The translations under genes and the position numbers were made by a program. A stretch of 64,000 nt of DNA from Gaiellaceae bacterium (GTDB taxonomy: Bacteria > Actinomycetota > Thermoleophilia > Gaiellales > Gaiellaceae). The stretch's first letter is position 1. The number at the start of each line of letters is the position of its first letter. The stretch spans positions 14,636 through 78,635 of the forward strand of contig DATHVD010000046.1 in NCBI GenBank assembly GCA_035461525.1. The letters are read 5' to 3'. Below are positions 1,867-29,758 of this stretch, piece after piece. The notes beneath the pieces were generated by a model. It searched no databases and was not told where the DNA came from. It saw only the letters and a program-made list of their open reading frames with translations.

Positions 1867-1873
1867 GGCGTCT

Positions 1874-8678: not shown

Positions 8679-8728
8679 GGAGGAGATCGTAGCCTTCGCT
8701 CGAGCGTTTTCAGGCTTGACGGAGCGGC

Positions 8729-8734: not shown

Positions 8735-8798
8735 GTCCGCCTTCGGGCGGCGCGTCAGCGCCGCGTTCGTCTGTCTTGAGGGGGTTCGGAGGAAGGCA

Positions 8799-11699: not shown

Positions 11700-12444
11700 G
11701 CCGGTGGAACAGCGCCGAATGACGGTTGTCCGGCGGCCGCCACCAGTCGCGCATCGCGTCGCCGAGCCGATAGGGAGGCAGCGGCACGAACTCGGCCAGC
11801 CCCGTCGCCTCCATCCGTTTTCGCCGGTACTGGAAGAGCGCGCTGCCGTCCCACTGGTGGCTCAGGTCGACCCACAAGAGCGGATCGAAGACGAGCACCC
11901 AGCCGGCGGCCGTCACGCGCAGCGCCCACCTGCGGTCCTCGGAGCTCGTGAGCCCTTCGGCGAACGGGATCCCGCGCCAGATCTCCGCGCGCCAGGAGGA
12001 GGCGTGGTTCGAGAAGCCCCAGAGCGGGTTCGTCCACGCGTGCTCCCCATCCTGGAAGAACGGCTCCTCGACCCGCGTCCCGTCCGGGAGCGTCTGGATG
12101 CCGTTCGTCCCCGCCACGTCGGCGCGCGCGTAGTGGGCGAGCGAGCGCTCCACCCAGTCGTCCCGCTCCGGGAAGCAGTGGGCCGAGAGGCAGAAGTGGA
12201 AGGGGGCCCGGGCCGCGTCGGCGCCGATGTTGATCGCGCGGCCGTAGTCGAAGGTCTCGGCCGGGATCTCGATCAGCGTGTCGCACCAGCGCCGGGCGAT
12301 CTCCACCGTGCGGTCGGTCGAGCCGGAGTCGACGACGACGATCTCGACGGGGACGGTCTGCCGCCGGAGCGCCTCGAACGTTCGCTCGATCGCCCACTCC
12401 TTGTTCTTCGCGCGGACGATGACGCTGGCGCGAGGCTCCGGCAT
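11617..12444 (-). CDS. glycosyltransferase family 2
   Basis: 275 aa. ASVIVRAKN, VVVDSGSTD and SED motifs are present. It converges on the previous GT2, with their 3' ends overlapping by 83 nt. Confidence 0.7.
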   Translation of the reverse strand: MPEPRASVIVRAKNKEWAIERTFEALRRQTVPVEIVVVDSGSTDRTVEIARRWCDTLIEIPAETFDYGRAINIGADAARAPFHFCLSAHCFPERDDWVERSLAHYARADVAGTNGIQTLPDGTRVEEPFFQDGEHAWTNPLWGFSNHASSWRAEIWRGIPFAEGLTSSEDRRWALRVTAAGWVLVFDPLLWVDLSHQWDGSALFQYRRKRMEATGLAEFVPLPPYRLGDAMRDWWRPPDNRHSALFHRLNYRRLAGILGRYRGLAATRRTWRRAL

Positions 12445-13940: not shown

Positions 13941-14800
13941 CCGGGGCGCCCGACGTCTCGATCGTCGTCGTCGCCTACGACGTCCGCGACGAGGTCCTCT
14001 CCTGCCTCGAGTCCGTGGAGCGCCACGCCGCCCCCGTCGCGACCGAGGTCTTCCTCGTCGACAACGCGTCGACGGACGGCACGGCCGAGGCGGTCGCCGA
14101 GAGGTTCCCGGCCGTCGAGACGGTTCGCCTGCCCGTGAACATCGGCGTCGCGGCGCGCAACGAGGGCCTCCGGCGCGCCCGCGGGCGGATGCGCATGTTC
14201 CTCGACAGCGACGCGCGCCTCACCGAGGGCGCCCTCGCCGACCTCGCCGGGTACCTCGACGCCCACCCGGGCGTCGGCCTCGTCGGGCCGAGGCTCGTCT
14301 ACGAGGACGGGACGCTCCAGCTCTCGGCCCGCCGTTACCCGCCGGTCCTCCTCCCGCTCCTGCGCCGTCCGCCGCTCGCGCGATTCTTCGACGGCAGCCG
14401 ATGGGTGCGCCGCCACCTCATGGCCGGCGAGCCGCACGACGCGACTCGCGAGGTCGAGTATGTTCTCGGCGCCTGCCAGCTCTTCACGGCGCGGGCGCAG
14501 GCGGCGGCGGGCGAGATCGACCCGCGGATCTTCTTCGGCCCGGACGACGTCGAGTGGTGCTTCCGGATCCGGCGGGCGGGGCTCGCCGTCGTCTACCACC
14601 CGGCGGCGACGGTCGTCCACGCCTACCGGCGCTCTTCGGCCCGCCACCCGCTCTCCCGGGTCGCGCTGCGCCAGCTCGAGGCGTTCGCGCGCTTCCAGTG
14701 GCGCTGGCGGCACGAGAGGGCCGCCCTCGTCGCCGAGGGGCGGGAGATGGACGCGCGGGCGCACGCGGCCCGGGCTGGCCGACCGCAATCCCCCGAGTAG
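13937..14800 (+). CDS. glycosyltransferase family 2
   Basis: The GTG overlaps the flippase stop (GTGA). Contains VSIVVVAYD, VDNASTDGT, the DxD motif FLDSD and DVEWC.R motifs. Confidence 0.8.
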   Translation: MTGAPDVSIVVVAYDVRDEVLSCLESVERHAAPVATEVFLVDNASTDGTAEAVAERFPAVETVRLPVNIGVAARNEGLRRARGRMRMFLDSDARLTEGALADLAGYLDAHPGVGLVGPRLVYEDGTLQLSARRYPPVLLPLLRRPPLARFFDGSRWVRRHLMAGEPHDATREVEYVLGACQLFTARAQAAAGEIDPRIFFGPDDVEWCFRIRRAGLAVVYHPAATVVHAYRRSSARHPLSRVALRQLEAFARFQWRWRHERAALVAEGREMDARAHAARAGRPQSPE

Positions 14801-14809: not shown

Positions 14810-16177
14810 ATGTCCGCCGACCAGCTCCTCGTCACGCTCTGGCGGCGCAAGTGGATCGTCCTCCTGACGGTGCTCGTGGCGACCGTGGCCACCTACGCGG
14901 TCAGTCTCCAGCTCCCGAAGGTGTACTCGGCCGAGGCGACCCTCTTCGTCGGCAACCGCAGCGAGGCGGGGAGCGACTTCGAGGCGATCCAGTCCTCCCA
15001 GGTGCTCGCGCGCACGTACGCCGAGCTGATCCAGAGCCCCAACGTGGCCGCGCGCGTCGCGGAGGAGCTGCCGGGCGGCGAGAGCCCGTCCGAGGTCCTC
15101 GAGCGCACGAGCTTCCGGCCGATCTCGGACACCCAGCTCCTCGTCGTCCAGGCGGAGGGCTCGACCCCGACCGAGGCGGCCGAGCTCGCCAATGCCTACG
15201 CGCAGGGATTCGCCTCCTACGTCGAGACCGAGCTCCCCGCGGAGACGAACGGCGAGGTCACGGTCGCGGACGCGGCGCAGCCTCCGGCCTCGGCCGTCCG
15301 GCCCCGGCCGGCGCTCTACACCGCCGTCATGTTCGTCTTCGCGCTCTTCCTCGGCGCCGGCCTCGCGCTCCTCCGCGACCGGCTCGACACGCGCCTCGGG
15401 AGCGAGGAGGAGCTCGCCAACGAGCTCGGCGTCCCCGTGCTCGCCCGCGTGCCGACGCTCGGCCGGCGCCGGCGCCAGGCGAAGGCGCGCGAGCAACGCT
15501 TCCTCGAGGCCTTCCGCATCCTGCGGACGAACCTCGCCTTCCTCTCGCCCCAACAGCCGCTCGCGAGCGTCGTCCTGGCGAGCGCCTCCCCGGCCGAGGG
15601 GAAGTCCACGTGCGCGATCGCCCTCGCACGCGTCATGGCCGAGCAGGGACGGAGGGTGCTCGTCATCGAGGGCGACCTGCGGCGGCCCGCGCTCGCGCGG
15701 ATGTACGAACTCGACGGTCCCGCGATCAAGGGCCTGACGCACTACCTCGCGCTCGGCTGGCGCTTCGAGGAGGTCGTGCACGAGACGCCGGTGCGGAACG
15801 TCTTCGTCATGCCCGCCGGCGCCGTGCCGCCGAACCCCTCCACGCTCCTCCGCCCGGACGCGCTCAAGAGCCTGCTCGCGGACGCGGCCGAGTGGGCCGA
15901 CTTCGTGATCGTCGACAGCCCGCCGCTCTCCGCCGGGGCCGACGCGACCATCCTCGCGCACGCCGTCGGCACCGTCATCTTCGTCGTCAACCACCGCCGT
16001 GGCTCGCGGACGAAGGTCGCCGCCTCCATCCGCCAGCTGCGGCAGACCGACGCGACCATCGCCGGCCTGATCGTCAACGAGATCGCCGGCGCGGACGACT
16101 CCGACCGCTACTACGGCGAGGTCGACCCGACCGAGGCCCACTCCGGCCCGCTGACGGCGACGCGCCCGCCGGCCTGA
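14810..16177 (+). CDS. polysaccharide co-polymerase (Wzz) fused to a BY-type tyrosine autokinase
   Basis: 455 aa. Has an N-terminal TM segment plus Wzz domain. Kinase motifs are Walker A SPAEGKST, A' VLVIEGDLRRP and B VIVDSPP. The C-terminal Tyr pair is DRYYG. Confidence 0.8.
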   Translation: MSADQLLVTLWRRKWIVLLTVLVATVATYAVSLQLPKVYSAEATLFVGNRSEAGSDFEAIQSSQVLARTYAELIQSPNVAARVAEELPGGESPSEVLERTSFRPISDTQLLVVQAEGSTPTEAAELANAYAQGFASYVETELPAETNGEVTVADAAQPPASAVRPRPALYTAVMFVFALFLGAGLALLRDRLDTRLGSEEELANELGVPVLARVPTLGRRRRQAKAREQRFLEAFRILRTNLAFLSPQQPLASVVLASASPAEGKSTCAIALARVMAEQGRRVLVIEGDLRRPALARMYELDGPAIKGLTHYLALGWRFEEVVHETPVRNVFVMPAGAVPPNPSTLLRPDALKSLLADAAEWADFVIVDSPPLSAGADATILAHAVGTVIFVVNHRRGSRTKVAASIRQLRQTDATIAGLIVNEIAGADDSDRYYGEVDPTEAHSGPLTATRPPA

Positions 16178-17613
16178 TGACGGCGCGGAGCTGGGCGCCG
16201 GCGGCTGGCCCGCGCCGGTCGCTCTCCCTCCTGGTGGCCGTCGCGGGCGCAGCGGCGGTGGCCGTCGCGGGCGGCGCCTACGCGATCGGCTCCTACCGCC
16301 TCGACGACCCGACGATCCTTCCGATCGTGGCGGCCGGGCTCGCCGCGGTCACGCTCGGGCTCTGGCGGCTCGAGTACGGGCTCGCGCTCCTCATCGTCCT
16401 CACCCCGCTGGCCGAGAACGCGCCCATCGCCGAGCCCGAGAACGCGCGCCTGCGGGTCGCCCTCGTCGCATGGGCGATGGTGCTCGTCGGCCTCCAGGCC
16501 GTCCGCTCGGTCCTGAGCGGACGGAGGCTCGAGGTGCCGCCGGTCTTCGCCGGCGCGCTCGCCTTCGTCGGCGCCGCGCTCGCGGCCGTCCCGTTCGCCG
16601 GGGACGGGCAGGCGGCGGCCTCCAAGTTCCTCCTCCTCGCCGGCTCCGTCTTCATCTACCTCCTGATCGCGCTCTTCCTCGACGACTGGCGATCCCTGCG
16701 GCCGATCTTCGCCGCGCTGCTCGTAGTCGGGCTCGTCGTCGCCGTGCACGCGCTCTGGCAGTACGCCACGGGTCAGCTGTCGCGCGTCGGCTTCGTCAGC
16801 GCGACGGGCGCCGTCGAGTACCGCGTGGCCTCGTTCTTCCCGCACCCGAACCAGCTCGCCGGCTTCGTCGTCCTCTTCGTGCCGCTCTCGATCGGGCTCT
16901 ACCGCGTCTTCGAGAGCCCGCTGGCGAAGGCCGCCTCGCTCGTCCTGGCGCTCGTAGCGCTCCCGGCAGCGATCGTCACGTACTCACGCGGCGTCCTCGT
17001 CGCCCTCGTGGCGCTCGTCCTCGCCTTCGCGCGGAACCGCAAGGCCTGGCCGCTGATCGCCGCGGCCGCCGTCCTCGTCGTCCTCCTGGCGCCCGCCGCC
17101 TGGCAAGACCGCGTTGCCGACGTCGGCCGCCTCGACCGTCCCGAGATCGCGACGAGGCTCGACTTCTGGGAGGCGTCCGTCGCCATGTTCCAGGCGCACC
17201 CGGTGGTCGGCGTCGGCCTGAACAACTTCGAGGAGGCGTACGCCGGCCTCGAGCTGACGGGCCGCAGCTTCCTGCCCGGCGGAGGGCTGACCGCACCGGA
17301 GACGGCGCACAACCTCTACCTGAACACGCTCGCGGAGCAGGGCCTCGTCGGGATCGCCGCGCTCGCGCTGCTCGTCCTCGCTGCCGCCCGCATGGTGCTC
17401 GCGCTGCGCCGCTCGCACGACCCCCGGATCCGCGGCTTCGGGCTCGGGCTCATGGGAGCGGGGATCGCGCTCCTGGTCTCGAACCTCTTCGACGTGACCT
17501 TCGTCGACCCGAAGACGTCGATGCTCGCCTGGACGCTCCTCGGCGTCGGCGCCGCGCTCCAGCGCATCGACGCGCGAACGCGCGGCGAGGCGGCGGCCTC
17601 GCCTCCCGAGTGA
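16177..17613 (+). CDS. O-antigen ligase/Wzy-like polymerase membrane protein
   Basis: ATG overlaps the upstream stop (TGATG). About 10-12 TM helices are predicted. A periplasmic-loop motif (HPVVGVGLNNF...AHNLYLN.LAEQG) is typical of the Wzy_C/O-antigen ligase family. Confidence 0.7.
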   Translation: MTARSWAPAAGPRRSLSLLVAVAGAAAVAVAGGAYAIGSYRLDDPTILPIVAAGLAAVTLGLWRLEYGLALLIVLTPLAENAPIAEPENARLRVALVAWAMVLVGLQAVRSVLSGRRLEVPPVFAGALAFVGAALAAVPFAGDGQAAASKFLLLAGSVFIYLLIALFLDDWRSLRPIFAALLVVGLVVAVHALWQYATGQLSRVGFVSATGAVEYRVASFFPHPNQLAGFVVLFVPLSIGLYRVFESPLAKAASLVLALVALPAAIVTYSRGVLVALVALVLAFARNRKAWPLIAAAAVLVVLLAPAAWQDRVADVGRLDRPEIATRLDFWEASVAMFQAHPVVGVGLNNFEEAYAGLELTGRSFLPGGGLTAPETAHNLYLNTLAEQGLVGIAALALLVLAAARMVLALRRSHDPRIRGFGLGLMGAGIALLVSNLFDVTFVDPKTSMLAWTLLGVGAALQRIDARTRGEAAASPPE

Positions 17614-18734
17614 AGCGCGACATCCTCTTCTACTCCGACTTTCCTTTCGGCTTCCACAACGCCGAGGCCGAGGAGAAGATGGCCCGCTTCGCGGCGCGGG
17701 GACATCGGGTCGTCTACGTCGAGCAGCTCGGGATCCGCAACCCGCGTCCCCGGCACCTCCTGCGCGCCCTTCGAGGGCGGCGCGGCGCCGGACGGCCCCG
17801 CCGAGCGGTGCCGTTCGAGGTCGTCTCGCCGAAGCTCCTGCCGCCGCGTCGCGCACCCGTCTTCGACGGGCTCAACCGCCGCTGGCTCGCGCGTCAGCTC
17901 CTCGCCCACGTGCGCGACCCGGCCGCGACCGTTCTCTGGGCGCGCTTCCCGACGCCCGAGCTCCTGCCGCTCGCCGAACGAGAGCCGTGGGCGGCCGTCG
18001 TCTACGAGTCGGTCGACGACCACCTGGCCAGCCCGGGGCTTCCGGAGCGTCTGCGGCCGGTCCTCGAAGAGGCCGAAGCGCGCCTGCTCGCGCGCGCCGA
18101 CGTCGTCTTCGCCTGGTCCGAGCCGATCCGGGCGCGGCTGGCCGCCCTGCACCCGAACGTGCGCCTGGCGACCGCCGCCGCCGACCTCGAGGCGCTCGCC
18201 CCGGCGGCGGCAGCACCCGGGGAGGAGCGCACCGCGGTCTTCGCGGGCGCGCTCGGGTTCCGCTTCGACGAGGAGCTCGCAGCCGCCGTCGCGCGGCTCC
18301 TTCCCGACTGGACGCTCGTCCTCGCCGGGCCGGTGGACGCCGGTGCGGAGAGCGCGCTCTCGGGGCTCCCCAACGTGCGCCTGACGGGGCCGTTCGAGCG
18401 GGCCGAGCTGCCGGGGCTCCTGGCCCGCGGGTCGGTCGCGCTCGTCCCCTACCGGCGCAACGAGTTCACGGACACGCTCGTGCCCGTGAAGATCGTCGAG
18501 TACCTCGCCGCCGGTCGGCCCGTCGTCTCGACGCCGATGCTCGCGGCCGAGGCGTTCGCCGACGTCGTCTCCTTCGCCGAGGGGCCCGAGAGCTTCGCGG
18601 CGACCGTGCGCGCCGCGGCGGCGGGCGACACGCCGGAGGCCCGCCGCAGGCGCGTGGAGCGGGCGCAGCCGTACTCGTGGGAGCGGCGCATCGACGACAT
18701 GGAGGCCGCGATCGAGGAGGCGGCGCGTGGCTGA
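17610..18734 (+). CDS. GT-B fold glycosyltransferase (GT1/GT4-like)
   Basis: The GTG overlaps the upstream stop. The C-terminal E-x7-E-like region (LVPVKIVEYLAAGRPVVST) and overall length fit a GT-B enzyme. Confidence 0.6.
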   Translation: MKRDILFYSDFPFGFHNAEAEEKMARFAARGHRVVYVEQLGIRNPRPRHLLRALRGRRGAGRPRRAVPFEVVSPKLLPPRRAPVFDGLNRRWLARQLLAHVRDPAATVLWARFPTPELLPLAEREPWAAVVYESVDDHLASPGLPERLRPVLEEAEARLLARADVVFAWSEPIRARLAALHPNVRLATAAADLEALAPAAAAPGEERTAVFAGALGFRFDEELAAAVARLLPDWTLVLAGPVDAGAESALSGLPNVRLTGPFERAELPGLLARGSVALVPYRRNEFTDTLVPVKIVEYLAAGRPVVSTPMLAAEAFADVVSFAEGPESFAATVRAAAAGDTPEARRRRVERAQPYSWERRIDDMEAAIEEAARG

Positions 18735-19692
18735 GGCGCGCGCCGTCGCGGTCGTCGTCCCCGTCCTGGACGAGGCGGAGAGCTTACCCGCGCTCCTCGC
18801 CGACCTCGCAGCCCAGGAGCCGGCTCCGGCCGAGATCGTCGTCGTCGACGCGGGCTCGACTGACGGGACGCTCGACCTCCTGCGCGCCGAGGCGCTCCGC
18901 CTCCCTGCCTTGCGGGTCGTCGAGTCGCCGGGGGCGACGCCCGGCCGGGGCCGCAACGAGGGCGTCCGCGCCTCGGCGGCCGCGCTCGTCGTCACGCTCG
19001 ACGCGGGGAGCCGCGTCGGCCCGGGCTTCGTGCGCGCCCTCGCGGCCACGGTCGCCGCCGGTCCGCGGGCGGTCGCCGTGGGCGTGGCCGAGCCGGACGC
19101 CCGCTCCGCCTTCGAGCGCGCCGCCGGCTGGTTCACGCTCCGGGCCTTCAAGCCGCCGGACGCGCCGGGGCCGATCGGCGCCGAGTTCCTCCCGGCCGGG
19201 CGCAACGGCCTCGCCTTCGCCCGCGAGGCGTGGGAGGAGGCGGGCGGCTACCCACCCGACCTCCCCTGGGGGGAGGACAAGCTCTTCCTCCGGGCGCTCC
19301 GCGCCGCGGGCTACGAGCTGACGGCCGTGCCGGAGGCGGTCGTCCGCTGGCGCCCGCGCGGGTCGCCCCGCGCGCTCTGGCGTCAGTACCGCAACTACGG
19401 CCGCGGCGACGCGCTCGGGCGGGTCGACCGCCAGAACGAGCTCGTCACCCTCGGCCTCCTCGCCGTCGCCGTCGCTCTGGCCGTCCTCGCCGCGCTCGGC
19501 TCCCGCACGGCGGGCGCGCTCCTCGTCGCGGGCGCCGCCGGCTACCTCGCGCTCTTCGTGCTCGCGGCCCGGCGCGACCTCGGCGTCGACCGCGCCCTCC
19601 TCTGGGTGCCCGCCGTCCGCCTCCTCGTGGACGCGGCCAAGGTGCAGGGGTTTCTCGAGGGCACCCTCCTGCGACTCGTCCGCCGGGCCTGA
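18727..19692 (+). CDS. glycosyltransferase family 2 with C-terminal TM helices
   Basis: 321 aa. Contains VAVVVPVLDE, VVVDAGSTDGT, RN.G and TLDAG motifs. Two hydrophobic helices occupy the last 80 aa. Confidence 0.7.
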   Translation: MAEARAVAVVVPVLDEAESLPALLADLAAQEPAPAEIVVVDAGSTDGTLDLLRAEALRLPALRVVESPGATPGRGRNEGVRASAAALVVTLDAGSRVGPGFVRALAATVAAGPRAVAVGVAEPDARSAFERAAGWFTLRAFKPPDAPGPIGAEFLPAGRNGLAFAREAWEEAGGYPPDLPWGEDKLFLRALRAAGYELTAVPEAVVRWRPRGSPRALWRQYRNYGRGDALGRVDRQNELVTLGLLAVAVALAVLAALGSRTAGALLVAGAAGYLALFVLAARRDLGVDRALLWVPAVRLLVDAAKVQGFLEGTLLRLVRRA

Positions 19693-19782: not shown

Positions 19783-21228
19783 GTGGAAGCAGCGTTCAGA
19801 ACGAGCAAGCGCCCACGCGGCTGCGTCGCGCTGGCCGCGCTCGTCGCGGCGCTCGCGCTCGCCCAGGCCGCTCCGGCGGCCGAGGTCGGGGTCGTCGGCG
19901 ACATCACGTGGGGCCAGCCCCGCAGCGACGTCGACCGGGAGATCGAGCTCCTGGAGGCGGCGGGCGTCAAGTGGATCCGCGCGAACGCAAACTGGGCCGG
20001 CCTCGAGCCGGACCAGAAGGGGACGATCAACACCTGGCTCCTCGACGAGTACGACTACGCGATCGACCGCGCGCGCGCCGCCGGGATGCAGGTCCTGATG
20101 CCGATCTCCGACGGCGTCCCGTACTGGGCGTCGGCCGATCCGGCCAAGTACGTCGACGGCTCCGGCAAGCGCCGCTACCAGGTCACGTACCGCCCGGCGA
20201 AGGCGTCCGACTACGGCGACATCGTCCGCTTCGTCGTCGAGCACTTCAGCGCGCGCGGCGTCCACGCCTACCAGATCTGGAACGAGCCCAACCACGGGCG
20301 CTTCTGGCCGTCGGGCCCGAATGCGGGCGAGTACGTCCCCATGCTCAGGGCCGGCTACGAGGCGGTGAAGGCCGTCGATCCCGGGGCGACCGTCGTCCTC
20401 GGCGGGCTCTCGAAGAGCGACTTCTACTACCTCGAGGACGTCTACCGCGCCGGCGGCGGCCCCTACTTCGACGCCGTCGCCGTGCACCCGTACACGTTCG
20501 GCGTCGACCCGACCGTCGCCTGGAACGGCGTCCAGGCCTGGGAGGACAAGAAGCGGATCTCGATCAACGCGTTTCCGGCCATCCAGGAGATCAAGCGGTC
20601 GATGGACGCGTTCGGCGACTCGCACAAGAAGGTCTGGCTGACGGAGTTCGGCTACTCGACCACGACGCGCGACGGCGGCGTCTCGGCGCAGACGCAGGCG
20701 GAGTTCCTCACGAAGGCCTACCACTACGTCGAGCAGTTCCCGTGGTTGGAGACGCTCTTCTGGTACGCGGCCCGCAACAGCCCCTTCTACGAGGACGAGG
20801 ACACCTACGAGGGACGTTTCGGGCTGACCGCGACGGACTTCACGCCGAAGCCGAGCTACGCGGCGCTCAAGGCATACGCGAAGGGGCCGGGGATGCAGGC
20901 GAAGCGGAAGGTGAGGCTCGCGAAAGCCGGCCAGCGCCTGCTTCGCGCCGGGGAGCCACGGGCGCGCGTCGTCCTCCGCGGGCGCGTCGTGCTCGGCGAG
21001 GACGCCTGGCGCGTTGCCGCCGCCGCGCGGCAGGCTCGGCGCGCCGTCGTCATCCAGAGGCGCACGCCGCGCGGGTGGGTGCGCGTGAAGCGGGTCACGA
21101 CGGGGACGGACGGCGCGTTTCGGGCGCGGGTCGTCGCTCGCGGCGACACGGTGCGCTACCGCGCCGTCGCGCGCTACGACGACCTGCGCGTCAGCTCGCG
21201 CGTCGTCCGCGTCACCATCCGGCGCTAG
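19783..21228 (+). CDS. secreted clan GH-A glycoside hydrolase (GH5/GH39-like, PslG-type) with a C-terminal beta-sandwich
   Basis: 481 aa. Has a signal peptide (ALAALVAALALAQAAPA). The acid/base motif is IWNEPN and the nucleophile motif is WLTEFGYS. Its position inside an EPS locus is consistent with this call. Confidence 0.7.
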   Translation: MEAAFRTSKRPRGCVALAALVAALALAQAAPAAEVGVVGDITWGQPRSDVDREIELLEAAGVKWIRANANWAGLEPDQKGTINTWLLDEYDYAIDRARAAGMQVLMPISDGVPYWASADPAKYVDGSGKRRYQVTYRPAKASDYGDIVRFVVEHFSARGVHAYQIWNEPNHGRFWPSGPNAGEYVPMLRAGYEAVKAVDPGATVVLGGLSKSDFYYLEDVYRAGGGPYFDAVAVHPYTFGVDPTVAWNGVQAWEDKKRISINAFPAIQEIKRSMDAFGDSHKKVWLTEFGYSTTTRDGGVSAQTQAEFLTKAYHYVEQFPWLETLFWYAARNSPFYEDEDTYEGRFGLTATDFTPKPSYAALKAYAKGPGMQAKRKVRLAKAGQRLLRAGEPRARVVLRGRVVLGEDAWRVAAAARQARRAVVIQRRTPRGWVRVKRVTTGTDGAFRARVVARGDTVRYRAVARYDDLRVSSRVVRVTIRR

Positions 21229-21260: not shown

Positions 21261-23270
21261 ATGGAGGAGACGGAGCCTCACGGGTCGCCCTGGGCGCCCG
21301 CCCTGCTCGTCGGCGCGCTCCCGATCGGGATCTTCCTCCTGTGGGCGGCGATCGACGGTGGGTATCCGCCGACGATCTGGAACCCCGGCGCGCTCGCGCT
21401 CGCCGGCCTTCTCGCCCTCCTCCTCGGCGTCGCGCGCGAGCTCCTGTGGACGCTCCCGCGGGTCGCGCTCGCGGCGCTCGCGCTTCTCGGCGCCTTCACG
21501 CTCTGGACCTTCCTCTCCATTCTCTGGGCCGTCGACCGGGGCGAGGCCTGGGACGCGTCCAACCGCGCCCTTCTCTACCTCGCCGTCTTCGGGATCTTCC
21601 TCCTCTGGCCCTGGCGCACGGGCCAGGGCGCCCTCCTCCTCGGCGCCTGGGCGCTCGGCGTGGCCGGGATCGCCGCGCTGACGTTCGTCTCGGCGCTCGG
21701 CTCCGACGATCCGTACAGCTTCTTCATCGGCGGGCGCTACGTGCAGCCGGCCGGCTACGTCAACGCGGCCTGCGCCCTCTTCCTCTCCGCCTTCTGGCCG
21801 GCTGCCTTCGTCGCCTCCCGGCGCGAGACGCCGTGGTTCCTCCGCGGCCTCTTCCTCGCCGCCGCCGGCTTCCTCCTCCAGCAGGCGATCCTGCCGCAGA
21901 GCCGCGGCTCCCTCTTCGTCTTCCCCGCGGTCGTCGCGCTCTACCTGGTGCTCGTCCCGGGCCGGATCCGTTCGCTGCTCGTCCTCGGCCCCGCCTTCCT
22001 CGCCTTCGCCCTCGTCCGCGAGCCGCTCCTAGACGTCTACTCGGCGGCGCGCGAGGGGACGCTCCCCGCCGGGCTCGCGGCGCTCGAGGAGCCGCTCCTC
22101 GGCTCCGCCGCAGCGCTCTTCGCGCTCGGCACGGTCTACGGGCTCGTCGACCGCTTCGCGCCGCTGCCCCGCGACGTCGCCCGGCTCGGCTCCTGGCTCC
22201 TCGGGAGCCTGGCCGTGCTCGCCGTCGTCGTCGCGGCCGTGACGCTGCTCGCCGTCTACGGCAACCCGGTGACCCGCGCCGGGGACGCCTGGGACGAGTT
22301 CACGGCCGGCCAGGTCTTCGAGGAGGACGCGTCGTACCTCGGCGCCAACCTCGGGAGCAACCGCTACGACTTCTGGCGCGTGGCGATGGGGGAGTTCCGC
22401 GACTCCCCGGTTGCCGGCATCGGGGCGGGGAACTTCGCCGCGGCGTACCTGCGTGAGCGGGAGAGCCTCGAGGAGCCGCTCTTCCCGCACAGCCTGCCGG
22501 TGATGATCCTGTCGCAGACCGGCCTCGTCGGAGGGGTCCTCTTCCTCGGCTTCCTGGGCGCGGCGCTCGCGGCCGCCTGGGCGGCGCGGGCCCGCGGGAC
22601 GCCGTTCGGCCGCGCCGTCGTCGCCGTCTCCGTCGTCGCCTTCGCCTACTTCCTCGCCCACGGGTCGATCGACTGGTTCTGGGAGTTCCCGGGGCTCGCT
22701 GCACCGGCCTTCGCCTGGCTCGGCCTCGCCGGCGGCCTCGGGCGGCCGGCCGCCGTCTCCTCGGAACGTCCGCCGGGCTGGACGTCGCGGCGGGCGACAG
22801 CCGCCGCGGCCGCTACGCTCGTGCTCGTGGCGGCTGCCGCCTCCCTCGCCTTCCCCTGGCTCGCAGCGCGGGAGGTCGAGCGCGCCGCCGAAGCCTGGCG
22901 CACGAGGCCCGACACGGCCTACGCCGCCCTCGACCGCGCCCGCGCCCTCAACCCGCTCAGCGACCGCGCCGACCTCGTCGCGGGCGCGATCGCGATGCGG
23001 CGCGAGGACTGGCCGCGGGCCGAGGAGGCCTTCGGCCGCGCGCTCGCGCGGAACGAGGAGAACTGGTACGCCGAGCTCGAGCTGGCGCTCGTAGCCGCGC
23101 TCGAGGGCCGCGACGCCGAAGCGCTCGCCCGGCTCGGCCGCGCCGAGGAGCTGAACCCGCGCGAGGAGACGATCGGCCTCGTCCGGGAGGGCGTGACGTC
23201 GGGCGAGCCCGTGAACCCACGGGTCGTGGACCGGATCCTGCTCCAGCGAGTCGAGGCGAGGACGAGCTGA
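21261..23270 (+). CDS. second Wzy/O-antigen-ligase-like membrane protein with a C-terminal TPR domain
   Basis: 669 aa with more than 10 TM helices. Has a loop motif SNRYDFWRVAM..F...PV.G.GAGNF. The last 170 aa (YAALDRARALNP...AEELNP) form TPR-like repeats. Confidence 0.65.
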   Translation: MEETEPHGSPWAPALLVGALPIGIFLLWAAIDGGYPPTIWNPGALALAGLLALLLGVARELLWTLPRVALAALALLGAFTLWTFLSILWAVDRGEAWDASNRALLYLAVFGIFLLWPWRTGQGALLLGAWALGVAGIAALTFVSALGSDDPYSFFIGGRYVQPAGYVNAACALFLSAFWPAAFVASRRETPWFLRGLFLAAAGFLLQQAILPQSRGSLFVFPAVVALYLVLVPGRIRSLLVLGPAFLAFALVREPLLDVYSAAREGTLPAGLAALEEPLLGSAAALFALGTVYGLVDRFAPLPRDVARLGSWLLGSLAVLAVVVAAVTLLAVYGNPVTRAGDAWDEFTAGQVFEEDASYLGANLGSNRYDFWRVAMGEFRDSPVAGIGAGNFAAAYLRERESLEEPLFPHSLPVMILSQTGLVGGVLFLGFLGAALAAAWAARARGTPFGRAVVAVSVVAFAYFLAHGSIDWFWEFPGLAAPAFAWLGLAGGLGRPAAVSSERPPGWTSRRATAAAAATLVLVAAAASLAFPWLAAREVERAAEAWRTRPDTAYAALDRARALNPLSDRADLVAGAIAMRREDWPRAEEAFGRALARNEENWYAELELALVAALEGRDAEALARLGRAEELNPREETIGLVREGVTSGEPVNPRVVDRILLQRVEARTS

Positions 23271-23299: not shown

Positions 23300-23327
23300 T
23301 TGACACGCGTGAAAAGCCGCCGATACT
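23300..23327 (+). promoter_or_regulatory. sigma-70-type promoter candidate upstream of the LPFTG mini-protein/priming transferase unit
   Basis: TTGACA (23300-23305), a 16-nt spacer, then GATACT (23322-23327). This implies a leader of about 245 nt before ATG 23579. Confidence 0.4.
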
Positions 23328-23578
23328 GTGAGGTGAGCCCCTGGGGAGGACAGGGGTCCCAAATGCGGCAAACCGAGAGAGGCTCTTCACCTGCGGCTCG
23401 TCAGCGTGCTCGAACACGAGGGTGCTCACGACGGCGTGGCGGTCAGTACTAGGCCGTGGCGTCGATCAGCGAGCCGTCCGATGCGCCCGCTGGCTCGTGC
23501 CGTGAGGATGAAAGTAGTGTTTGAGCGCGTTGCACGTGGGGCAGACCTACGGCGCGGCTCACTGGAAAAGGAGAGACC

Positions 23579-23830
23579 ATGCGGAAGCGGATAGCGGTAA
23601 TCGGAGGCGCGGCCTTCGCGTTCTTCACGACGGCATCTCTTGCGTTCGCGCAGGAGCCGACGCAGAGCGGGTACGGAGGCACCGGCGGATCCATCCAGGG
23701 TGGAGTCGAGGGAGGCGGAGCGGGCGCGCTGCCGTTCACCGGCCTCGATCTCCTGCTCCTGGTCGCGGCTGGGGCGCTCCTGCTCGCTGCCGGCCTCACC
23801 CTCAGGCGCGTCAGTAGGGCAAGAAGCTAG
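23579..23830 (+). CDS. mini secreted protein with an LPFTG sortase sorting signal (paralog 1)
   Basis: 83 aa, with RBS AAAGGAGAG. Has a signal peptide ending ASLAFA|QE and a Gly-rich 25-aa core. LPFTG (aa 51-55) is followed by a hydrophobic helix and the basic tail RRVSRARS. Confidence 0.7.
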   Translation: MRKRIAVIGGAAFAFFTTASLAFAQEPTQSGYGGTGGSIQGGVEGGGAGALPFTGLDLLLLVAAGALLLAAGLTLRRVSRARS

Positions 23831-23848
23831 ACCCGGAGTTCTGCGGCA

Positions 23849-25303
23849 ATGAGCGAGAGCCCTCGCGCGGAACCGCGCGCGCAAGGCCTGGGCGCGCGGC
23901 AGCTCGCCGATCGGATGCGAGGCCTGGGCGGCTGGACCATCAGCTGCTTCGTGGTCGACGCGCTCATGCTCACGGCCGCCGTCGTCGTCGCCGACCTCGG
24001 CTCCGGCCGGGCCGGCGTCCCGCCGACCCCGGCGCTCTGGCTCGCCGCGTTCCCCATCCTCACGTTCGTCTTCATGGCGGCGCGAGGGATGTACCGACAG
24101 CGCGCTTTCCTGCGCGTGCTCGACGATCTGCGCGTCACCGTCACGGCGACTGCGCTCGCGGCGATGATCGTGCTCTCGCTACGGGTCCTCACGGCCGACG
24201 ATCCCTGGATGGCGGCGCAGACGGCCCGCCTGTGGGCGTTTGCGAGCATCTACCTGCTCGCCGGGCGCGTCGTGCTCTCCTGGAGCGAGCTCCGGGCCCG
24301 CCGCCGCGGCGAGTCCGTCCGGCCGACGCTCGTCGTCGGCGCCGGACGCGTCGGGCGGCTGACGGCCAAGCGCCTCCGCGAGCACCCGGAGCTCGGCCTC
24401 AGGCCCGTCGGCTTCCTCGACAAGGAGCCGCTCGACGGGAAGGACGGCGACCTGCCGGTGCTGGGAGCGAGCTGGGACCTCGACCGGATCGTGGCCGAGC
24501 ACGGCGTCCGCCACGTCGTCCTCTCCTTCTCGACCGCGCCCCAGAGCGTCCTGCTCCGGATCATGCAGCGGTGCCAGGAGCTCGGCGTCGAAGTCTCGAT
24601 GGTGCCCCGCTTCTACGAGAAGGTCGTGGGCCACATCGGCGTCGAGTACCTCGGCGGCCTGCCGCTGATGATGGCGCAGCCGACGAACCCGCGCGGCTGG
24701 CACTTCACCGTCAAATACCTTTCCGACCGGATCGCAGCGACGTTCCTGCTCGTGCTCGTGTCGCCGGTGCTGCTCGCCGCGGCGCTCGGCGTTCTGGTCA
24801 CGATGGGACGCCCCGTCTTCTTCCGGCAGCCCCGCGCCGGGCTGGACGGCCACGTCTTCGACATCATCAAGCTGCGCACGATGCGCCCATCAAAGCCGGG
24901 CGGCGATGCGCCCGCCGACCTGCCGGCCGGCACCGCGCCCGGCGGAGTCGAGGGGGAGGACCGCCGGACCCCGCTCGGCAGCTTCCTGCGTAAGAGCTCC
25001 ATCGACGAGCTGCCTCAGCTCTGGAACGTCGTTCGCGGCGAGATGAGCCTCGTCGGCCCCCGCCCCGAGCGGCCCGAGTACGTCGAGCGCTTCAGCGAGC
25101 AGATCGAGCGCTACGGCGCGCGCCACCGCGTCAAGGCCGGCATCACGGGCTGGGCCCAGGTGCACGGCCTCCGCGGCCGGACGTCGCTCGCGGACCGCGT
25201 CGAGTGGGACAACTACTACATCGAGAACTGGTCGCTCTGGCTCGACGTCAAGATCCTGCTCCTGACGGTCCTCGCAGTCGTCCGGCCGGCCCAGGCCGAG
25301 TGA
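23849..25303 (+). CDS. polyprenyl-phosphate glycosyl-1-phosphate transferase (WbaP/Bac_transf priming enzyme)
   Basis: 484 aa with N-terminal TM helices. The C-terminal sugar-transferase motifs are RP.FF.Q.R.G..G..F...KLRTM, DELPQLWNV..GEMSLVGPRP and GITGWAQV. Confidence 0.85.
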   Translation: MSESPRAEPRAQGLGARQLADRMRGLGGWTISCFVVDALMLTAAVVVADLGSGRAGVPPTPALWLAAFPILTFVFMAARGMYRQRAFLRVLDDLRVTVTATALAAMIVLSLRVLTADDPWMAAQTARLWAFASIYLLAGRVVLSWSELRARRRGESVRPTLVVGAGRVGRLTAKRLREHPELGLRPVGFLDKEPLDGKDGDLPVLGASWDLDRIVAEHGVRHVVLSFSTAPQSVLLRIMQRCQELGVEVSMVPRFYEKVVGHIGVEYLGGLPLMMAQPTNPRGWHFTVKYLSDRIAATFLLVLVSPVLLAAALGVLVTMGRPVFFRQPRAGLDGHVFDIIKLRTMRPSKPGGDAPADLPAGTAPGGVEGEDRRTPLGSFLRKSSIDELPQLWNVVRGEMSLVGPRPERPEYVERFSEQIERYGARHRVKAGITGWAQVHGLRGRTSLADRVEWDNYYIENWSLWLDVKILLLTVLAVVRPAQAE

Positions 25304-25382
25304 CCGCAGGCACGTTTCGCATCCTCGAGACCGGGGACAGACGGAGGGTCCGAGGAATCTGTGGCCCAAGGGGGTCTGCATC

Positions 25383-25640
25383 ATGAAGCTTTCGTTCGTA
25401 CTCACCGGGATGGCCCTCGCGTACCTCGCGACGGCGTCCCTGGCCTTCGCCCAGCAGCCGACCGAGAGCGGCTACGGCGGCGTCGGCGGCCAGGTCCAGG
25501 GCGATGTCGACGGCGGCGGCGCGGCCGGAGCCGGAGCGTTGCCGTTCACGGGTCTCGACGTCCTGCTCCTGCTCGGCGCGGGCGTCCTGCTCCTGGCGGC
25601 CGGCGTGACGCTGCGGCGCCTGAGCGGCGCGCGCAGCTAG
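25383..25640 (+). CDS. mini secreted protein with an LPFTG sortase sorting signal (paralog 2)
   Basis: 85 aa with the same architecture as 23579-23830. Has a signal peptide ending ASLAFA|QQ, then QPTESGYGG. LPFTG (aa 53-57), a TM helix and the tail RRLSGARS follow. Confidence 0.7.
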   Translation: MKLSFVLTGMALAYLATASLAFAQQPTESGYGGVGGQVQGDVDGGGAAGAGALPFTGLDVLLLLGAGVLLLAAGVTLRRLSGARS

Positions 25641-25648: not shown

Positions 25649-26476
25649 TCAGCGGGCCTTCGCGAGCAGGTAGATGCTCGCGAGGCCCGCCCAATCCCCG
25701 TAGGGCGCGAGGAGCGCGCGTGTGTCCTCGGCCTCGGCGCGGCGCCCGAGCAGCCGCGAGCAGAGCTCGATGAGCCCGAGATCGCCGACGAGCCCGTGCT
25801 CGCGGCGGCCCAGCCCGTAGAGGCTGATCATCCCCGCCGACCAGGGCCCGAGGCCGCGCTCGCGCTCCACGCGCGCGACCGCCGCCTCGGTGCTGACGCC
25901 GTGCAGCCGCTCGACGTCCCACTCGCGCGAGATGCGGACGAGGACGTTGGCCTTGCGCGCCACGAGCCCCTCTCGGGCCAGCAGGGCGGGCGAGAGGCCG
26001 CCGAAGGTCGCGCGCGTGGGCGGCAGCCGCAGCTCCCCGAGCGGCGCCGCGGCGCGCCGGAGGAGCTTCGCCTCGAGCGCCCGAGCCGCGCGCGCCTGTA
26101 TGAGCTGCCCGCAGACCGCCTTGAGGAGGGCGTGCGTGACCGTGCCGGTGCGAAGCGGCCGCAGCCCCCGCAGGCGCCGGATCGCGCCGCCGAGGAGCGG
26201 GTCGTCGCCGAAGCGGCGCAGAAAGGGGGAGTGGTCGTCGTCGGCGGCGAGGACGAAGCGAAGCCGCTCGAGCACCGGCTCCGGGTCGGCGCCCTCGACC
26301 CTGGCCTCGAGGACGCCGTCGGGCCGCTGGCGGACGCTGGCGAGGGCCGGCGTCCCGCCGGCCTCGAGCGCGAGCGTGAGCACGCCGTCGCGGAAGCGCC
26401 GCGTGGCGTCGCTCGCGTGCCTCGCCGAGAGCGCGAGCGAGTACGGCGGTCGCGCCACGATCGTGGTCTCGAGCAC
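25649..26476 (-). CDS. DNA-3-methyladenine glycosylase II family (AlkA-like, HhH-GPD)
   Basis: 275 aa. An N-terminal AlkA_N-like region is followed by the HhH motif (LGPWSAGMI) and the Asp-containing loop (VGDLGL). Confidence 0.7.
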   Translation of the reverse strand: MLETTIVARPPYSLALSARHASDATRRFRDGVLTLALEAGGTPALASVRQRPDGVLEARVEGADPEPVLERLRFVLAADDDHSPFLRRFGDDPLLGGAIRRLRGLRPLRTGTVTHALLKAVCGQLIQARAARALEAKLLRRAAAPLGELRLPPTRATFGGLSPALLAREGLVARKANVLVRISREWDVERLHGVSTEAAVARVERERGLGPWSAGMISLYGLGRREHGLVGDLGLIELCSRLLGRRAEAEDTRALLAPYGDWAGLASIYLLAKAR

Positions 26477-26492: not shown

Positions 26493-26915
26493 CTACCGGC
26501 GGAAGCCGAACTCGGCCACGACGATCGTGACCTCGTCCCAGAAGCCGTACGTGCCGACCGGGCCCTCGACGTGCACCGCGGCGACGCCGATCCGCCGCCA
26601 GCTCCGGTTGAGGAGGTTCGCGCGGTGTCCCGGGCTCCGCATCCAGCTCCTCACCGTCTGGCGGGCGCTCAGGCCGGGCGCGCCCCAAGCAACGTTCTCG
26701 CCTGCGCCCCAGACGCTCGCGTCGGGGCCGGGCCAGAACGTGCGGATCCAGGTGCCGAACGGCACCCAGCGTGAGGGTTCCGCCGCAGGAGCTCGTGGCG
26801 GAAGTAGCCGGCCGTCGCCATCGAGGCGGCGTGGCTGTTCGCCGCGGGTCAGGGGGGCCGCCGCGCGGAGCTTGGAGAGCCCGCAGGCCTGCCGAGCCGC
26901 GTTCACCCGCTTCAC
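26493..26915 (-). CDS. CAP (SCP/PR-1/YkwD-like) domain protein, probably indel-disrupted
   Basis: The C-terminal half is canonical (GENVAWG....SA...V..WM.SPGHRANLL......IGVA). The conserved HS..MA..GYF.H motif is found only in the +1 frame. A signal-peptide-like segment continues in frame upstream to about 27030, but no start codon precedes it. Confidence 0.5.
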   Translation of the reverse strand: MKRVNAARQACGLSKLRAAAPLTRGEQPRRLDGDGRLLPPRAPAAEPSRWVPFGTWIRTFWPGPDASVWGAGENVAWGAPGLSARQTVRSWMRSPGHRANLLNRSWRRIGVAAVHVEGPVGTYGFWDEVTIVVAEFGFRR

Positions 26916-27229: not shown

Positions 27230-29758
27230 TTGTTCGAGCGCTTCACCGAGAGAGCCCGGCAGGTCGTCGTTCTCGCCCAGGACGAGGCCCGCGCCCTCAA
27301 GCACAACTACATCGGCACCGAGCACATCCTGCTGGGACTCCTCCGCGAGGAGGAGGGCCTGGCCGCCCGCGTGCTCGACAGCCTCGACATCACGGTGGAG
27401 GAGGTTCGCGCCCAGGTGGCCCGCATCGTCGGACAGGGCGACGAGGTCACGACCGGCCAGATCCCGTTCACCCCGCGCGCGAAGAAGGTCCTCGAGTTGG
27501 CGCTGCGCGAGGCGCTCTCGCTCGGCCACAACTACATCGGCACCGAGCACATCCTCCTCGGCCTCGTGCGCGAGAACGAGGGCGTCGCCGCGCGCATCCT
27601 GCTCGACTTCGACGCCGACGCGGAGAAGATCCGCAACGAGATCATCCGCATGCTCTCCGGCCCGGGCCGCCGCCAGCAGGGCGGGGGCACCGCCGCGGGG
27701 GAGAAGTCGAAGAGCTCGAAGCTCCTCGACCAGTTCGGGCGCAACTTGACGAAGCTCGCGGCCGAGTCGAAGCTCGACCCGGTCGTCGGCCGCCAGACCG
27801 AGATCGAGCGCGTGATGCAGATCCTGTCGCGGCGCACGAAGAACAACCCCGTCCTGATCGGGGAGCCGGGCGTCGGGAAGACGGCCGTCGTCGAGGGGCT
27901 CGCCGCCCGCATCTCCGCTAACCAGGTGCCCGAGCTCCTCAAGAACAAGCAGATCTACACGCTCGACCTCGCCGCGCTCGTCGCGGGCTCGAAGTACCGG
28001 GGCGAGTTCGAGGAGCGGTTGAAGAAGGTGATGAAGGAGATCACCCAGCGGGGCGACATCATCCTGTTCATCGACGAGCTCCACAACCTCGTCGGCGCCG
28101 GCGCGGCCGAGGGCGCGATCGACGCGGCCTCGATCCTGAAGCCGGCCCTGGCCCGGGGCGAGCTGCAGACGATCGGCGCGACCACGCTCGACGAGTACCG
28201 CAAGTACCTCGAGCGCGACGCCGCCCTCGAGCGCCGCTTCCAGCAGATCCGCGTGGACGAGCCTTCCGTGGACGACACCGTGCAGATCCTGCGAGGGCTC
28301 CGCGACCGCTACGAGGCCCACCATCGCTGCACGATCACGGACGAGGCCCTCCGCGCCTCCGCCGTCCTCGCCGACCGTTACATCCAGGACCGCCACCTAC
28401 CGGACAAGGCCATCGACCTGATCGACGAGGCCGCCTCCCGCATGCGCATCAAGACGATGACCGCCCCGCCGCGCTACCGCGAGCTCGAGGAGGAGATCGA
28501 GAAGGTGCGCGAGGAGAAGGAGGCCTCGATCGAGGCGCAGGAGTTCGAGAAGGCCGCGAACCTCCGCGACAAGGAGCGCAAGCTCACGCAGAAGAAGCGC
28601 GAGCTGGAGGAGAAGTGGCGCAACTCCGAGCATGTCGAGCAGCCGGAGATCGGCGAGGAGGAGATCGCGGACATCGTCTCCATGTGGACGGGCATCCCGG
28701 TCTTCAAGCTCACCGAGGCCGAGTCGCAGAAGCTGATCCGCATGGAGGACGAGCTGCACAAGCATGTCATCGGCCAGCAGCAGGCGATCGTCGCCGTCTC
28801 GAAGGCGATCCGCCGCGCGCGCGCCGGCATCAAGGACCCGAAGCGCCCCACCGGCTCGTTCATCTTCCTCGGCCCCTCGGGCGTGGGCAAGACCGAGCTC
28901 GCGCGCACGCTCGCCGAGTTCCTCTTCGGCGACGAGGACGCCATGATCCAGGTGGACATGTCGGAGTACATGGAGAAGCACTCCGTGTCCCGGCTCGTCG
29001 GCTCCCCGCCCGGCTACATCGGCTACGACGAGGGCGGCCAGCTCACCGAGTCCGTGCGCCGGAAGCCGTACTCCGTCGTCCTCCTCGACGAGATCGAGAA
29101 GGCCCACCCGGACGTCTTCAACATCCTCCTCCAGATCCTCGAGGACGGGAAGCTGACGGACGCCCAGGGCCGTAAGGTCGACTTCCGCAACACGATCGTG
29201 ATCATGACGTCGAACATCGGCGCCGCCACGATCTCCAAGAACCAGTCCTTCGGCTTCTCGGTCGGCGACGACACCGGCCTCTCCTACGACGAGATGAAGG
29301 ACAGGATCATGGGAGAGCTGAAGAAGGTCTTCCGCCCCGAGCTCCTGAACCGGATCGACGAGGTCATCGTCTTCCACAAGCTGACGAAGGACGAGATCAA
29401 GACGATCGTCGACCTGATGATGAAGCGTCTGCGCGAGCAGATGGTCGAGCACGAGGCCGCCATCGAGCTCACGGAGGAGGCGAAGGAGCTCCTCGTCGAC
29501 AAGGGCTACGACCCGGCGATGGGCGCCCGGCCGCTCCGCCGCGCGATCCAGCGCTTCATCGAGGATCCCCTCGCCGACTTCGTCCTGGGCCGCTCGATCA
29601 AGCCCGGCTCGACGATCGTCGTCGACCGCAAGGACGAGGAGGAGGTCGACATCAAGGTCGTCGAGGGCGAGCCTCCGGAGCGCGAGAAGGTGACCGTCCC
29701 CGCCGACCAGCCCAAGGGCGAGTCGGAGGGCGACGCCGAGCCGCACGACGACGAGTAG
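27230..29758 (+). CDS. clpC: ATP-dependent Clp protease ATP-binding subunit ClpC
   Basis: 842 aa with a TTG start. [13 protein letters not shown]...[12 protein letters not shown] occurs twice (Clp_N). Has two AAA+ modules ([16 protein letters not shown]) and a UVR-like linker ([11 protein letters not shown]). Confidence 0.95.

Follow-up and report, generated by a model that had tools for sequence, protein, structure and literature searches.

LPFTG mini-proteins paired with a Wzy_C+TPR membrane protein in polysaccharide loci of Thermoleophilia: candidate wall-anchored glycan carriers

We analyzed a 64-kb stretch of DNA (the window) from a metagenome-assembled genome (MAG) of a Gaiellaceae bacterium (class Thermoleophilia; 73% GC), focusing on two very small proteins with an LPFTG motif, P1 and P2, which are encoded in a polysaccharide locus. 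An earlier reading of this DNA (the original prediction) had proposed that the two are paralogous, that they bracket the priming transferase of the locus and that they end in a classical sortase sorting signal. P1 (83 aa, 23579..23830, + strand) lies downstream of the gene for a 669-aa membrane protein combining a Wzy_C domain with a C-terminal TPR region (the Wzy_C+TPR protein; 21261..23270, +; identified with Pfam, AlphaFold2 (AF2) and Foldseek). It is followed by the priming transferase, a polyprenyl-phosphate glycosyl-1-phosphate transferase with CoA_binding_3 and Bac_transf domains (23849..25303, +; Pfam and NCBIfam). P2 (85 aa, 25383..25640, +) is encoded 3' of the transferase. The distances of 18 nt and 79 nt that had been given for P1 and P2 relative to the transferase are correct.

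Both open reading frames (ORFs) have the common architecture that had been described, and each of its elements can be read directly. P1 starts with a signal peptide (aa 1-24, nt 23579-23650), continues with a predicted mature peptide of 30 residues that contains Tyr32 (Q25-T54, nt 23651-23740) and ends in an anchor consisting of LPFTG (aa 51-55), a transmembrane (TM) helix (approximately aa 56-75) and the tail RRVSRARS. The corresponding parts of P2 are a signal peptide (aa 1-23), a predicted mature peptide of 33 residues (Q24-T56, nt 25452-25550, +) and the tail RRLSGARS, and the hydrophobic stretch comprises 20 residues in both proteins. The signal peptides show an n-region (MRKR), a hydrophobic h-region and the predicted cleavage site AFA↓Q, with A22, A24 and Q25 conserved in the alignment. 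A Cys-free, Gly-rich core with the motif Q.PT.SGYGG is present in P1 and P2, again as had been noted. The AF2 model of P1 contains helices at residues 2-24 and 55-81 only and leaves residues 25-54 disordered. Lys is absent from the mature peptides of P1, P2 and their Gaiellaceae homologs. A sortase-assembled pilin, or pilin-type polymerisation, was therefore discarded because the mature peptide offers no Lys nucleophile.

P1 and P2 are genuine coding genes. Each is preceded by a Shine-Dalgarno-like motif (GGAGAG for P1, GGGGG for P2), and the GC content at third codon positions (GC3) peaks in the proposed frame (0.79 for P1, 0.93 for P2), as it does in the flanking genes. BLASTP aligned the two proteins with 63% identity (E 5e-14). 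In a hand-checked alignment identity was 70% overall and reached 52/66 (79%) from TASLAFAQ onwards, so that the estimate of 'three quarters identical' from the C-region of the signal peptide holds. The ratio of nonsynonymous to synonymous substitution rates (dN/dS) was 0.23 with dS about 1, which marks P1 and P2 as old copies that are both under purifying selection.

Homologs of P1 were numerous, far more so than chance would allow. A search of 5.8 billion proteins (E<=0.01) matched 128 homologous clusters of 'hypothetical' proteins of 72-146 aa, those with a named source coming nearly all from Gaiellaceae MAGs. A family profile searched against 1.84 billion representatives retrieved 2864 at E<=0.001 and 429 at E<=1e-10; every one of the best 150 of the 2864 was 67-139 aa long. 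With each GTDB species represented by a single genome, a scan for G[SAT]LPFTGLD produced 315 pattern matches; 161 of them were confirmed as relatives, and the best 80 of these 161 are called the 80 loci below (single loci carry L numbers). In all 80 the protein carrying the signal is a mini-protein of approximately 80-110 aa. By label, 61 of the loci are Thermoleophilia (Gaiellales, Thermoleophilaceae and Solirubrobacterales including Conexibacter), 18 are assigned only to Actinomycetes or Actinomycetota and one to Acetobacteraceae; the latter is a probable binning error because its neighbours resemble those of the other loci. Outlying labels (Acetobacteraceae, Candidatus Limnocylindria, Candidatus Rokuibacteriota) were noted for L057 and for proteins P0108 and P0293, which are members or ligase neighbours. 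Since these proteins share 60-75% identity with their counterparts in Gaiellaceae or Solirubrobacterales, the contigs are probably mis-binned. Within this survey the family is found only in Thermoleophilia or in bins labelled no finer than Actinomycetota. A published list of 29 'conserved signature proteins' of unknown function present in all Thermoleophilia (PMC6544083, Table 2) includes the 90-aa WP_093115134.1 of Thermoleophilum album, which may belong to the same family.

In an alignment of 35 homologs, residues A22, Y32, G41, L51-P-F-T-G55 and R77 showed no variation and R76 almost none. LPFTG was present in 35/35, and these homologs had been collected by similarity rather than by pattern. 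The mature peptide is highly conserved along its entire length with the consensus QDPTQSGYGGTGGNIQGGVEGG..GSLPFT. The spacer differs between subfamilies: that of Gaiellales is rich in Gly, whereas that of Solirubrobacterales is rich in Ser/Thr and contains a two-Cys loop (TCQAYNPQLC). Counted by eye, 78 of the 80 mini-proteins have a Tyr no further than approximately 10 residues from the predicted mature N-terminus; counted by script, 67 do. The script count is lower because its cleavage-site heuristic failed on the remaining sequences.

No Pfam or NCBIfam model matched P1, P2 or the 35 homologs at its cutoff. Gram_pos_anchor (PF00746) was hit by only 3/35 members (E 2.9). Sub-threshold similarity to LAXTG_small_WW (NF058583) was seen in 21/35 members (best E 7e-5); for P1 it amounted to 19.2 bits (E 7e-4) and covered the sorting-signal region only. 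We rejected membership of NF058583 on account of this score, which is far below the curated cutoff of 65 bits, and attributed a weak match to TrbC/VirB2 (12/35 members, E 0.005) to the two hydrophobic helices. The classical sorting signal that had been proposed is thus present in all its parts (signal peptide, LPFTG, hydrophobic segment and basic tail), but neither PF00746 nor TIGR01167 recognizes it significantly. Neither the literature nor the curated families yielded a description of the mini-proteins or of their arrangement, in line with the earlier statement that none was known.

We then compared the genes surrounding the mini-protein gene. A profile for the Wzy_C+TPR protein found its gene in 63/80 loci, or in 63/73 once loci with an upstream flank shorter than 2.2 kb are set aside, usually 100-500 nt 5' of the mini-protein gene on the same strand. 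A priming transferase is located directly 3' (start within 800 nt, same strand) in 42/80 loci. One or both of these partners are present in 73/80 loci, so that the linkage to Bac_transf/Wzy genes for which the original prediction had suggested a search is indeed conserved; of the other seven loci, five are cut by a contig edge and two are second copies whose genomes contain a full locus as well. The conserved module consists of the Wzy_C+TPR gene, then the mini-protein, then the priming transferase. It is the upstream Wzy_C+TPR protein, to which the original prediction had given no particular attention, and not the priming transferase that is conserved most strongly as a partner of the mini-protein. 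The pairing was also apparent in the reverse direction. Four homologs of the Wzy_C+TPR protein (46-51% identical to that of the window), chosen solely for their long contigs and without reference to the mini-protein, all adjoin an LPFTG mini-protein, in the order ligase-mini-(transferase) or mini-transferase-ligase.

Bracketing of the transferase by two copies, as claimed for this locus, is real in the window but is not a conserved trait. Besides the window we had fetched 90 other loci, and in 90/90 of them the mini-protein is single-copy at this position; two of the 90 hold an unrelated additional signal-bearing gene elsewhere in the locus. P2 is therefore a lineage-specific second copy 3' of the priming transferase.

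The glycan genes around the pair vary. Hardly any locus outside the Gaiellaceae shares the window's genes for GT4, GT2, GH5 and the short Wzy protein, and the mini-protein/Wzy_C+TPR pair of Solirubrobacterales adjoins the housekeeping genes gatCAB, folD and pcrA. A pairing that stays constant amid changing glycan genes fits an acceptor-specific ligase rather than a repeat-unit-specific polymerase. Beside the Solirubrobacterales loci, the PcrA/UvrD-type helicase gene in L031 (15391-18252, - strand) carries an apparent intein-like insertion (CLVAG...VTHNS).

Several loci may represent secondary copies. Three Thermoleophilaceae loci (L027, L035, L071) carry a mini-protein gene without a Wzy_C+TPR gene and, upstream, a divergently oriented gene for a protein of approximately 236 aa that reads as Crp/Fnr-like; a priming transferase follows 3' in L027 and L071 only. 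The upstream neighbour in L045, L079 and L085 is LuxR- or SARP-like in appearance. All six look like regulated second copies. L075, which belongs to the L034 contig and lies 40 kb away, has a stand-alone mini-protein gene (9971-10315) and no Wzy_C+TPR gene nearby. Directly after it, a 429-aa ORF (10380-11669) combines an N-terminal extracytoplasmic function (ECF) sigma factor (NCBIfam/Pfam) with what read as a zinc-finger anti-sigma-like region, a TM helix and an outer tail. This tail ends in a mini-protein-like module (AGYSD...GGGSLPFTGLD, TM helix, RR). The ORF may be two genes read as one.

We wondered what kind of enzyme the Wzy_C+TPR protein might be. Pfam assigned Wzy_C (PF04932) with 39.9 bits against a cutoff of 31.7 and gave weak TPR matches, and homologs are named 'O-antigen ligase family protein' or 'TPR repeat protein' in their sources. 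Among 40 homologs of 45-75% identity, 56 residues are invariant, including R215, R237, R368, D370, R400, E405 and H410. The AF2 model (pLDDT 86.8, pTM 0.89) had a single PDB match at E<1e-3 in Foldseek, the O-antigen ligase WaaL (7tpg_B, E 4.3e-5, target-normalised TM 0.56). Its C-terminal 120 residues (helices 550-668) matched peptide-binding domains of three TPRs with target-normalised TM of 0.8-0.88. Searching the PDB by sequence gave only TPR noise (E about 1), so the fold search was needed to reach WaaL. Helix parity and the positive-inside rule suggest that the large conserved loop 334-411 is outside and is followed by three helices, an Arg-rich inside loop (493-508) and a last TM helix (509-531), which would place the TPR domain outside as well. 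We propose that this protein is an O-oligosaccharyltransferase (O-OTase) or ligase. The ligase is preferred over a polymerase because the locus has a second Wzy_C gene and because the pairing persists while the glycan genes change.

No sortase gene was detected in the six frames of the 64-kb window by tblastn, by a hidden Markov model of Thermoleophilia sortases or by phmmer with S. aureus SrtA (all E>1), which agrees with the earlier statement that the window lacks one. We therefore turned to the relatives. A phmmer search with S. aureus SrtA against the 1053 ORFs called in the 80 loci revealed a family of approximately 200-aa sortases in eight of them (L021, L024, L026, L029, L034, L043, L049, L063); the labels of these eight sortase loci are Thermoleophilaceae, plus two labelled Solirubrobacterales. 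In all eight, the sortase gene precedes the Wzy_C+TPR gene and shares its strand; that of L049 spans 6820-7422. The gene order in a ninth locus, L089, is ligase, mini-protein, transferase, sortase, with the sortase at 8226-9113, and the linked enzymes of the nine loci and two gene orders measure 200-295 aa. Their sequences identify them as bona fide, class E-like sortases: PF04203 scored 113 bits, TIGR01076 was above its cutoff, and class E was the best NCBIfam sortase class for the two representatives scanned, at 145 bits (cutoff 160). In the PDB, their nearest relatives are 5uus, 5go5 and 5cuw, all of which we take to be class E enzymes although 5cuw alone is labelled as such (SrtE1); relatives are named 'class E sortase' by NCBI. 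The linkage to a specific sortase class, for which the original prediction had likewise suggested a search, was hence recovered in nine related loci, with both scanned representatives scoring best as class E. A homology search with a Thermoleophilaceae sortase matched its closest relatives only.

A sorting system appears to operate in this class on conventional substrates too. L046 (Solirubrobacterales) encodes a 305-aa secreted cupredoxin-like protein (1024-1941) with a Ser/Thr-rich stalk, LPNTG, a TM helix and the tail RRARFAK, 8 kb from the LPFTG mini-protein of the same genome. By its sequence it is an ordinary sortase substrate, and since such a conventional LPNTG substrate exists in the class, the sorting system seems to work there and LPFTG[LM]D to be a dedicated variant of it.

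P1 has upstream elements of its own. Directly 3' of the Wzy_C+TPR stop codon lies a sigma-70-like promoter (TTGACA-16-GATACT, 23300..23327, +) that matches 10/12 positions, where shuffled sequences predict 0.1 such sites. The stretch GTTGACAC...CGATACTGTGA occurs in most of 14 aligned Gaiellaceae sequences including the window and is absent from L007. P1 would therefore have its own transcript. The promoter is followed by a conserved 5' leader of approximately 250 nt with three TGCGGC boxes and two stems (23328..23578, +), which was found with a length of 160-250 nt in Gaiellaceae relatives (L008-L019, and L025 in the region aligned). RNAalifold predicted 27 pairs on the leader alignment, eight of them with compensatory changes. 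No Rfam family matched anywhere in the window, the leader included. The leader may be a cis-regulatory RNA that controls the carrier peptide.

The remainder of the locus was annotated with Pfam for 26 of the 62 called ORFs, which covers the whole polysaccharide locus, and gene starts were set from frame-specific GC profiles. A GT2 gene is located at 11617-12444 (- strand). The + strand gene string then runs from a Wzx flippase (12471-13940) through GT2 (13937-14800), Wzz plus BY-kinase (14810-16177), a shorter Wzy_C protein of 478 aa (16177-17613), GT4 (17610-18734), GT2 (18727-19692) and a GH5-like hydrolase (19783-21228) to the Wzy_C+TPR protein, P1, the priming transferase and P2. The 478-aa Wzy_C protein is the likely polymerase. 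With Bac_transf at 203.8 bits and TIGR03025 EPS_sugtrans at 395.8 bits (cutoff 295.55) for the priming transferase, Pfam and NCBIfam agree with the description of a Wzx/Wzy locus with BY-kinase and priming transferase. Among the same 26 ORFs, no LCP gene was seen and no exosortase family matched.

Outside this string, two - strand genes separate the polysaccharide operon from clpC: 25649-26476 (275 aa, no Pfam match) and 26493-26915 (CAP/SCP domain). Their synteny with the locus is shared by every close Gaiellaceae relative. ClpC is encoded at 27230-29758, and a 239-aa protein with an N-terminal helix-turn-helix and two Clp_N repeats at 1183-1902 (-). An 1179-aa protein (3534-7073, -) joins an adenylate/guanylate cyclase, an AAA_16 ATPase, a TPR region and a C-terminal family-5 solute-binding domain, which makes an uncommon signalling architecture.

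How might these components work together? We propose, with a probability of about 0.5 and arguing mainly from sequence, that the mini-proteins are dedicated wall-anchored glycan carriers which the neighbouring ligase glycosylates and a sortase joins to peptidoglycan. Sec export and cleavage by signal peptidase at AFA↓Q would release a disordered peptide of approximately 30 residues that is kept at the membrane by its C-terminal LPFTG-TM-RR sorting signal. The priming transferase would start the polysaccharide on polyprenyl phosphate, and the other enzymes of the locus would build, flip and polymerise it. The outer TPR domain would bind the peptide, enabling the Wzy_C domain to move the polyprenyl-pyrophosphate-linked polymer en bloc onto it. 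The acceptor would most likely be Tyr32 (in P1), flanking Ser/Thr residues being alternatives. Finally, a class E-type sortase, which we infer for the Gaiellaceae host as well, would cut LPFT↓G and join the glycopeptide to peptidoglycan so that the polymer is tethered through the peptide.

Several observations weigh against the glycan-carrier proposal. Ten full-length loci have no Wzy_C+TPR gene within 10 kb; eight of them have a priming transferase, L035 and L075 have neither, and where examined the upstream neighbour is a Crp-, LuxR- or SARP-like regulator by sequence reading or is unrelated. The mature peptide of Gaiellaceae is Gly-rich, not Ser/Thr-rich. No sortase was found in the fetched Gaiellaceae loci, and class E sortases classically favour LAXTG, not LPXTG. 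PF00746 and TIGR01167 do not match P1 or P2 at E<=1, although this counts little against membership among sortase substrates because both models are short and weak. Lastly, fold and domain content cannot separate a ligase/O-OTase from a Wzy polymerase.

Some of these points would equally suit a mini-protein that is never glycosylated. Anchored by sortase or retained in the membrane, it would engage the TPR domain as ligand or adaptor and thereby position or activate the Wzy_C+TPR enzyme, or else the priming transferase, at the wall; the polymer would go to a different acceptor, for example a lipid or peptidoglycan. That explanation fits the linkage and sortase data just as well, TPR domains bind extended peptides, the Gaiellaceae core is poor in Ser/Thr, and a promoter and long leader specific to P1 suggest separate regulation. 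We nevertheless consider it unlikely, if deserving of serious attention. A 30-residue peptide covalently fixed to the wall would make a poor mobile regulator, and the near-universal Tyr together with the Ser/Thr-rich spacers of Solirubrobacterales look like acceptor sites. Moreover, known Wzy_C+TPR enzymes of the same architecture glycosylate proteins (PMC2943079). Quite unlikely, in our view, is an unprocessed bitopic micro-protein that forms one of the subunits in a polymerase complex of Wzy type or in an export complex, with LPFTG forming an interface at the membrane surface and the sortase linkage of some lineages being secondary. The missing sortase in the window and in Gaiellaceae loci and the silent PF00746 and TIGR01167 models would be explained in this way, as would a motif that is longer (G[ST]LPFTG[LM]D) and more constrained than the classical signal. 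All four elements of a sorting signal are nonetheless present and invariant, nine loci with two gene orders include a sortase in the gene string, and an ordinary LPNTG substrate exists in the class (L046).

The pairing with the Wzy_C+TPR gene bears on another explanation, namely that the mini-protein is an independent wall-anchored surface peptide (e.g. a chaplin-like modulator of charge or hydrophobicity) that shares an operon with the glycan genes without chemical coupling. The sub-threshold similarity of 21/35 members to LAXTG_small_WW speaks for it, and small LAXTG proteins occur in other Actinomycetota. We give it little credence, however. The peptide is disordered with no amphipathic or amyloid-type domain, and mere co-location is unlikely because the pairing outlasts changes in gene order, glycan gene set and genomic neighbourhood across a class. 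That P1 and P2 are simply chance open frames is effectively refuted by conservation and dN/dS. DNA of 73% GC is rich in spurious ORFs, and the GC3 of P1 is below that of its neighbours, yet thousands of homologs share length and motifs, dN/dS is 0.23, and the Shine-Dalgarno motif and promoter are conserved.

Attachment of wall glycopolymers to peptidoglycan in Gram-positive bacteria is credited to LCP phosphotransferases, and sortases are regarded as anchors for folded surface proteins. A ligase-like enzyme, a carrier peptide and a priming transferase, joined in some loci by a sortase, would unite both systems. We put forward only tentatively that Thermoleophilia fix capsule or exopolysaccharide (EPS) covalently to peptidoglycan in an LCP-independent manner, by means of a WsfB/PglL-like transferase, a carrier of approximately 30 residues (probably modified at Tyr) and a class E sortase. 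If true, the polymer-peptide-wall linkage would be a new mode of glycopolymer attachment and the mini-protein the smallest known dedicated sortase substrate, purely a glycan handle. Each component is of a known kind (sorting signal, class E sortase, Wzy_C ligase/O-OTase, priming transferase). Their class-wide, near-obligate combination with a dedicated, domain-less mini-substrate, whose family is uncurated, we found nowhere described. The proposal provides a testable function for over 2800 'hypothetical' mini-protein clusters and many 'O-antigen ligase family' genes of monoderm bacteria. Should the enzyme be a promiscuous O-OTase with a 30-residue acceptor tag, it might be of use in glyco-engineering.

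We finally compared the arrangement with known systems. In PEP-CTERM/exosortase systems, too, secreted proteins of EPS loci end in a short motif followed by a TM helix and an Arg-rich tail, with a dedicated processing enzyme and O-antigen-ligase-like genes nearby. PEP-CTERM proteins are, however, many per genome and often large, whereas here there are one or two and they are tiny. We rejected membership in that system because the motif is LPFTG instead of PEP and because the enzyme linked in relatives is a cysteine-transpeptidase sortase (PF04203), not an exosortase. The proteins of NF058583 resemble the mini-proteins in being small, actinobacterial and dominated by a sortase-type sorting signal, but they carry LAXTG rather than LPFTG, and the score reached 19 of the required 65 bits.

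WaaL (7tpg), as the sole significant fold match, is the structural relative of the Wzy_C+TPR protein. Within and close to its large predicted outer loop, the Wzy_C+TPR protein has invariant Arg and His residues, the location that the catalytic Arg and His occupy in WaaL. In contrast to WaaL, the Wzy_C+TPR protein belongs to a monoderm actinobacterium without a lipid A-core acceptor and possesses three additional TM helices as well as a TPR domain at its C-terminus. The two share only 17% sequence identity. Closer in domain architecture, on which alone we set them alongside, are O-OTases. WsaB, WsfB, PilO and PglL carry Wzy_C, and WsfB, from the Tyr-O-glycosylating S-layer system of Paenibacillus alvei, and PglL additionally carry a C-terminal TPR (PMC2943079). 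As with WsfB, WsaB, PglL and PilO, the gene clusters with a WbaP/WsaP/WsfP-type priming transferase, and the putative acceptor contains a conserved Tyr. The supply of lipid-linked glycan that Wzy_C-type O-OTase systems use is present in the window, in the form of the adjacent Bac_transf protein and Wzx (12471-13940). The acceptors differ: those of WsfB and PglL are large folded non-sortase proteins (S-layer proteins, pilins), here the candidate is a dedicated mini-peptide with a sorting signal.

By analogy, the nearest experimental precedent is the GspA pathway of Actinomyces oris, where LcpA, encoded next door, glycosylates a sorting-signal protein at the membrane before the housekeeping sortase SrtA attaches it to peptidoglycan (PMC6381275). 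There as here, the gene of a sorting-signal substrate adjoins that of a glycosylating enzyme, which in Thermoleophilia is a putative one. The substrate in Thermoleophilia is a domain-less peptide of approximately 30 residues, and the part played in A. oris by an LCP phosphotransferase would be taken by an enzyme with the Wzy_C/WaaL fold and a TPR domain.

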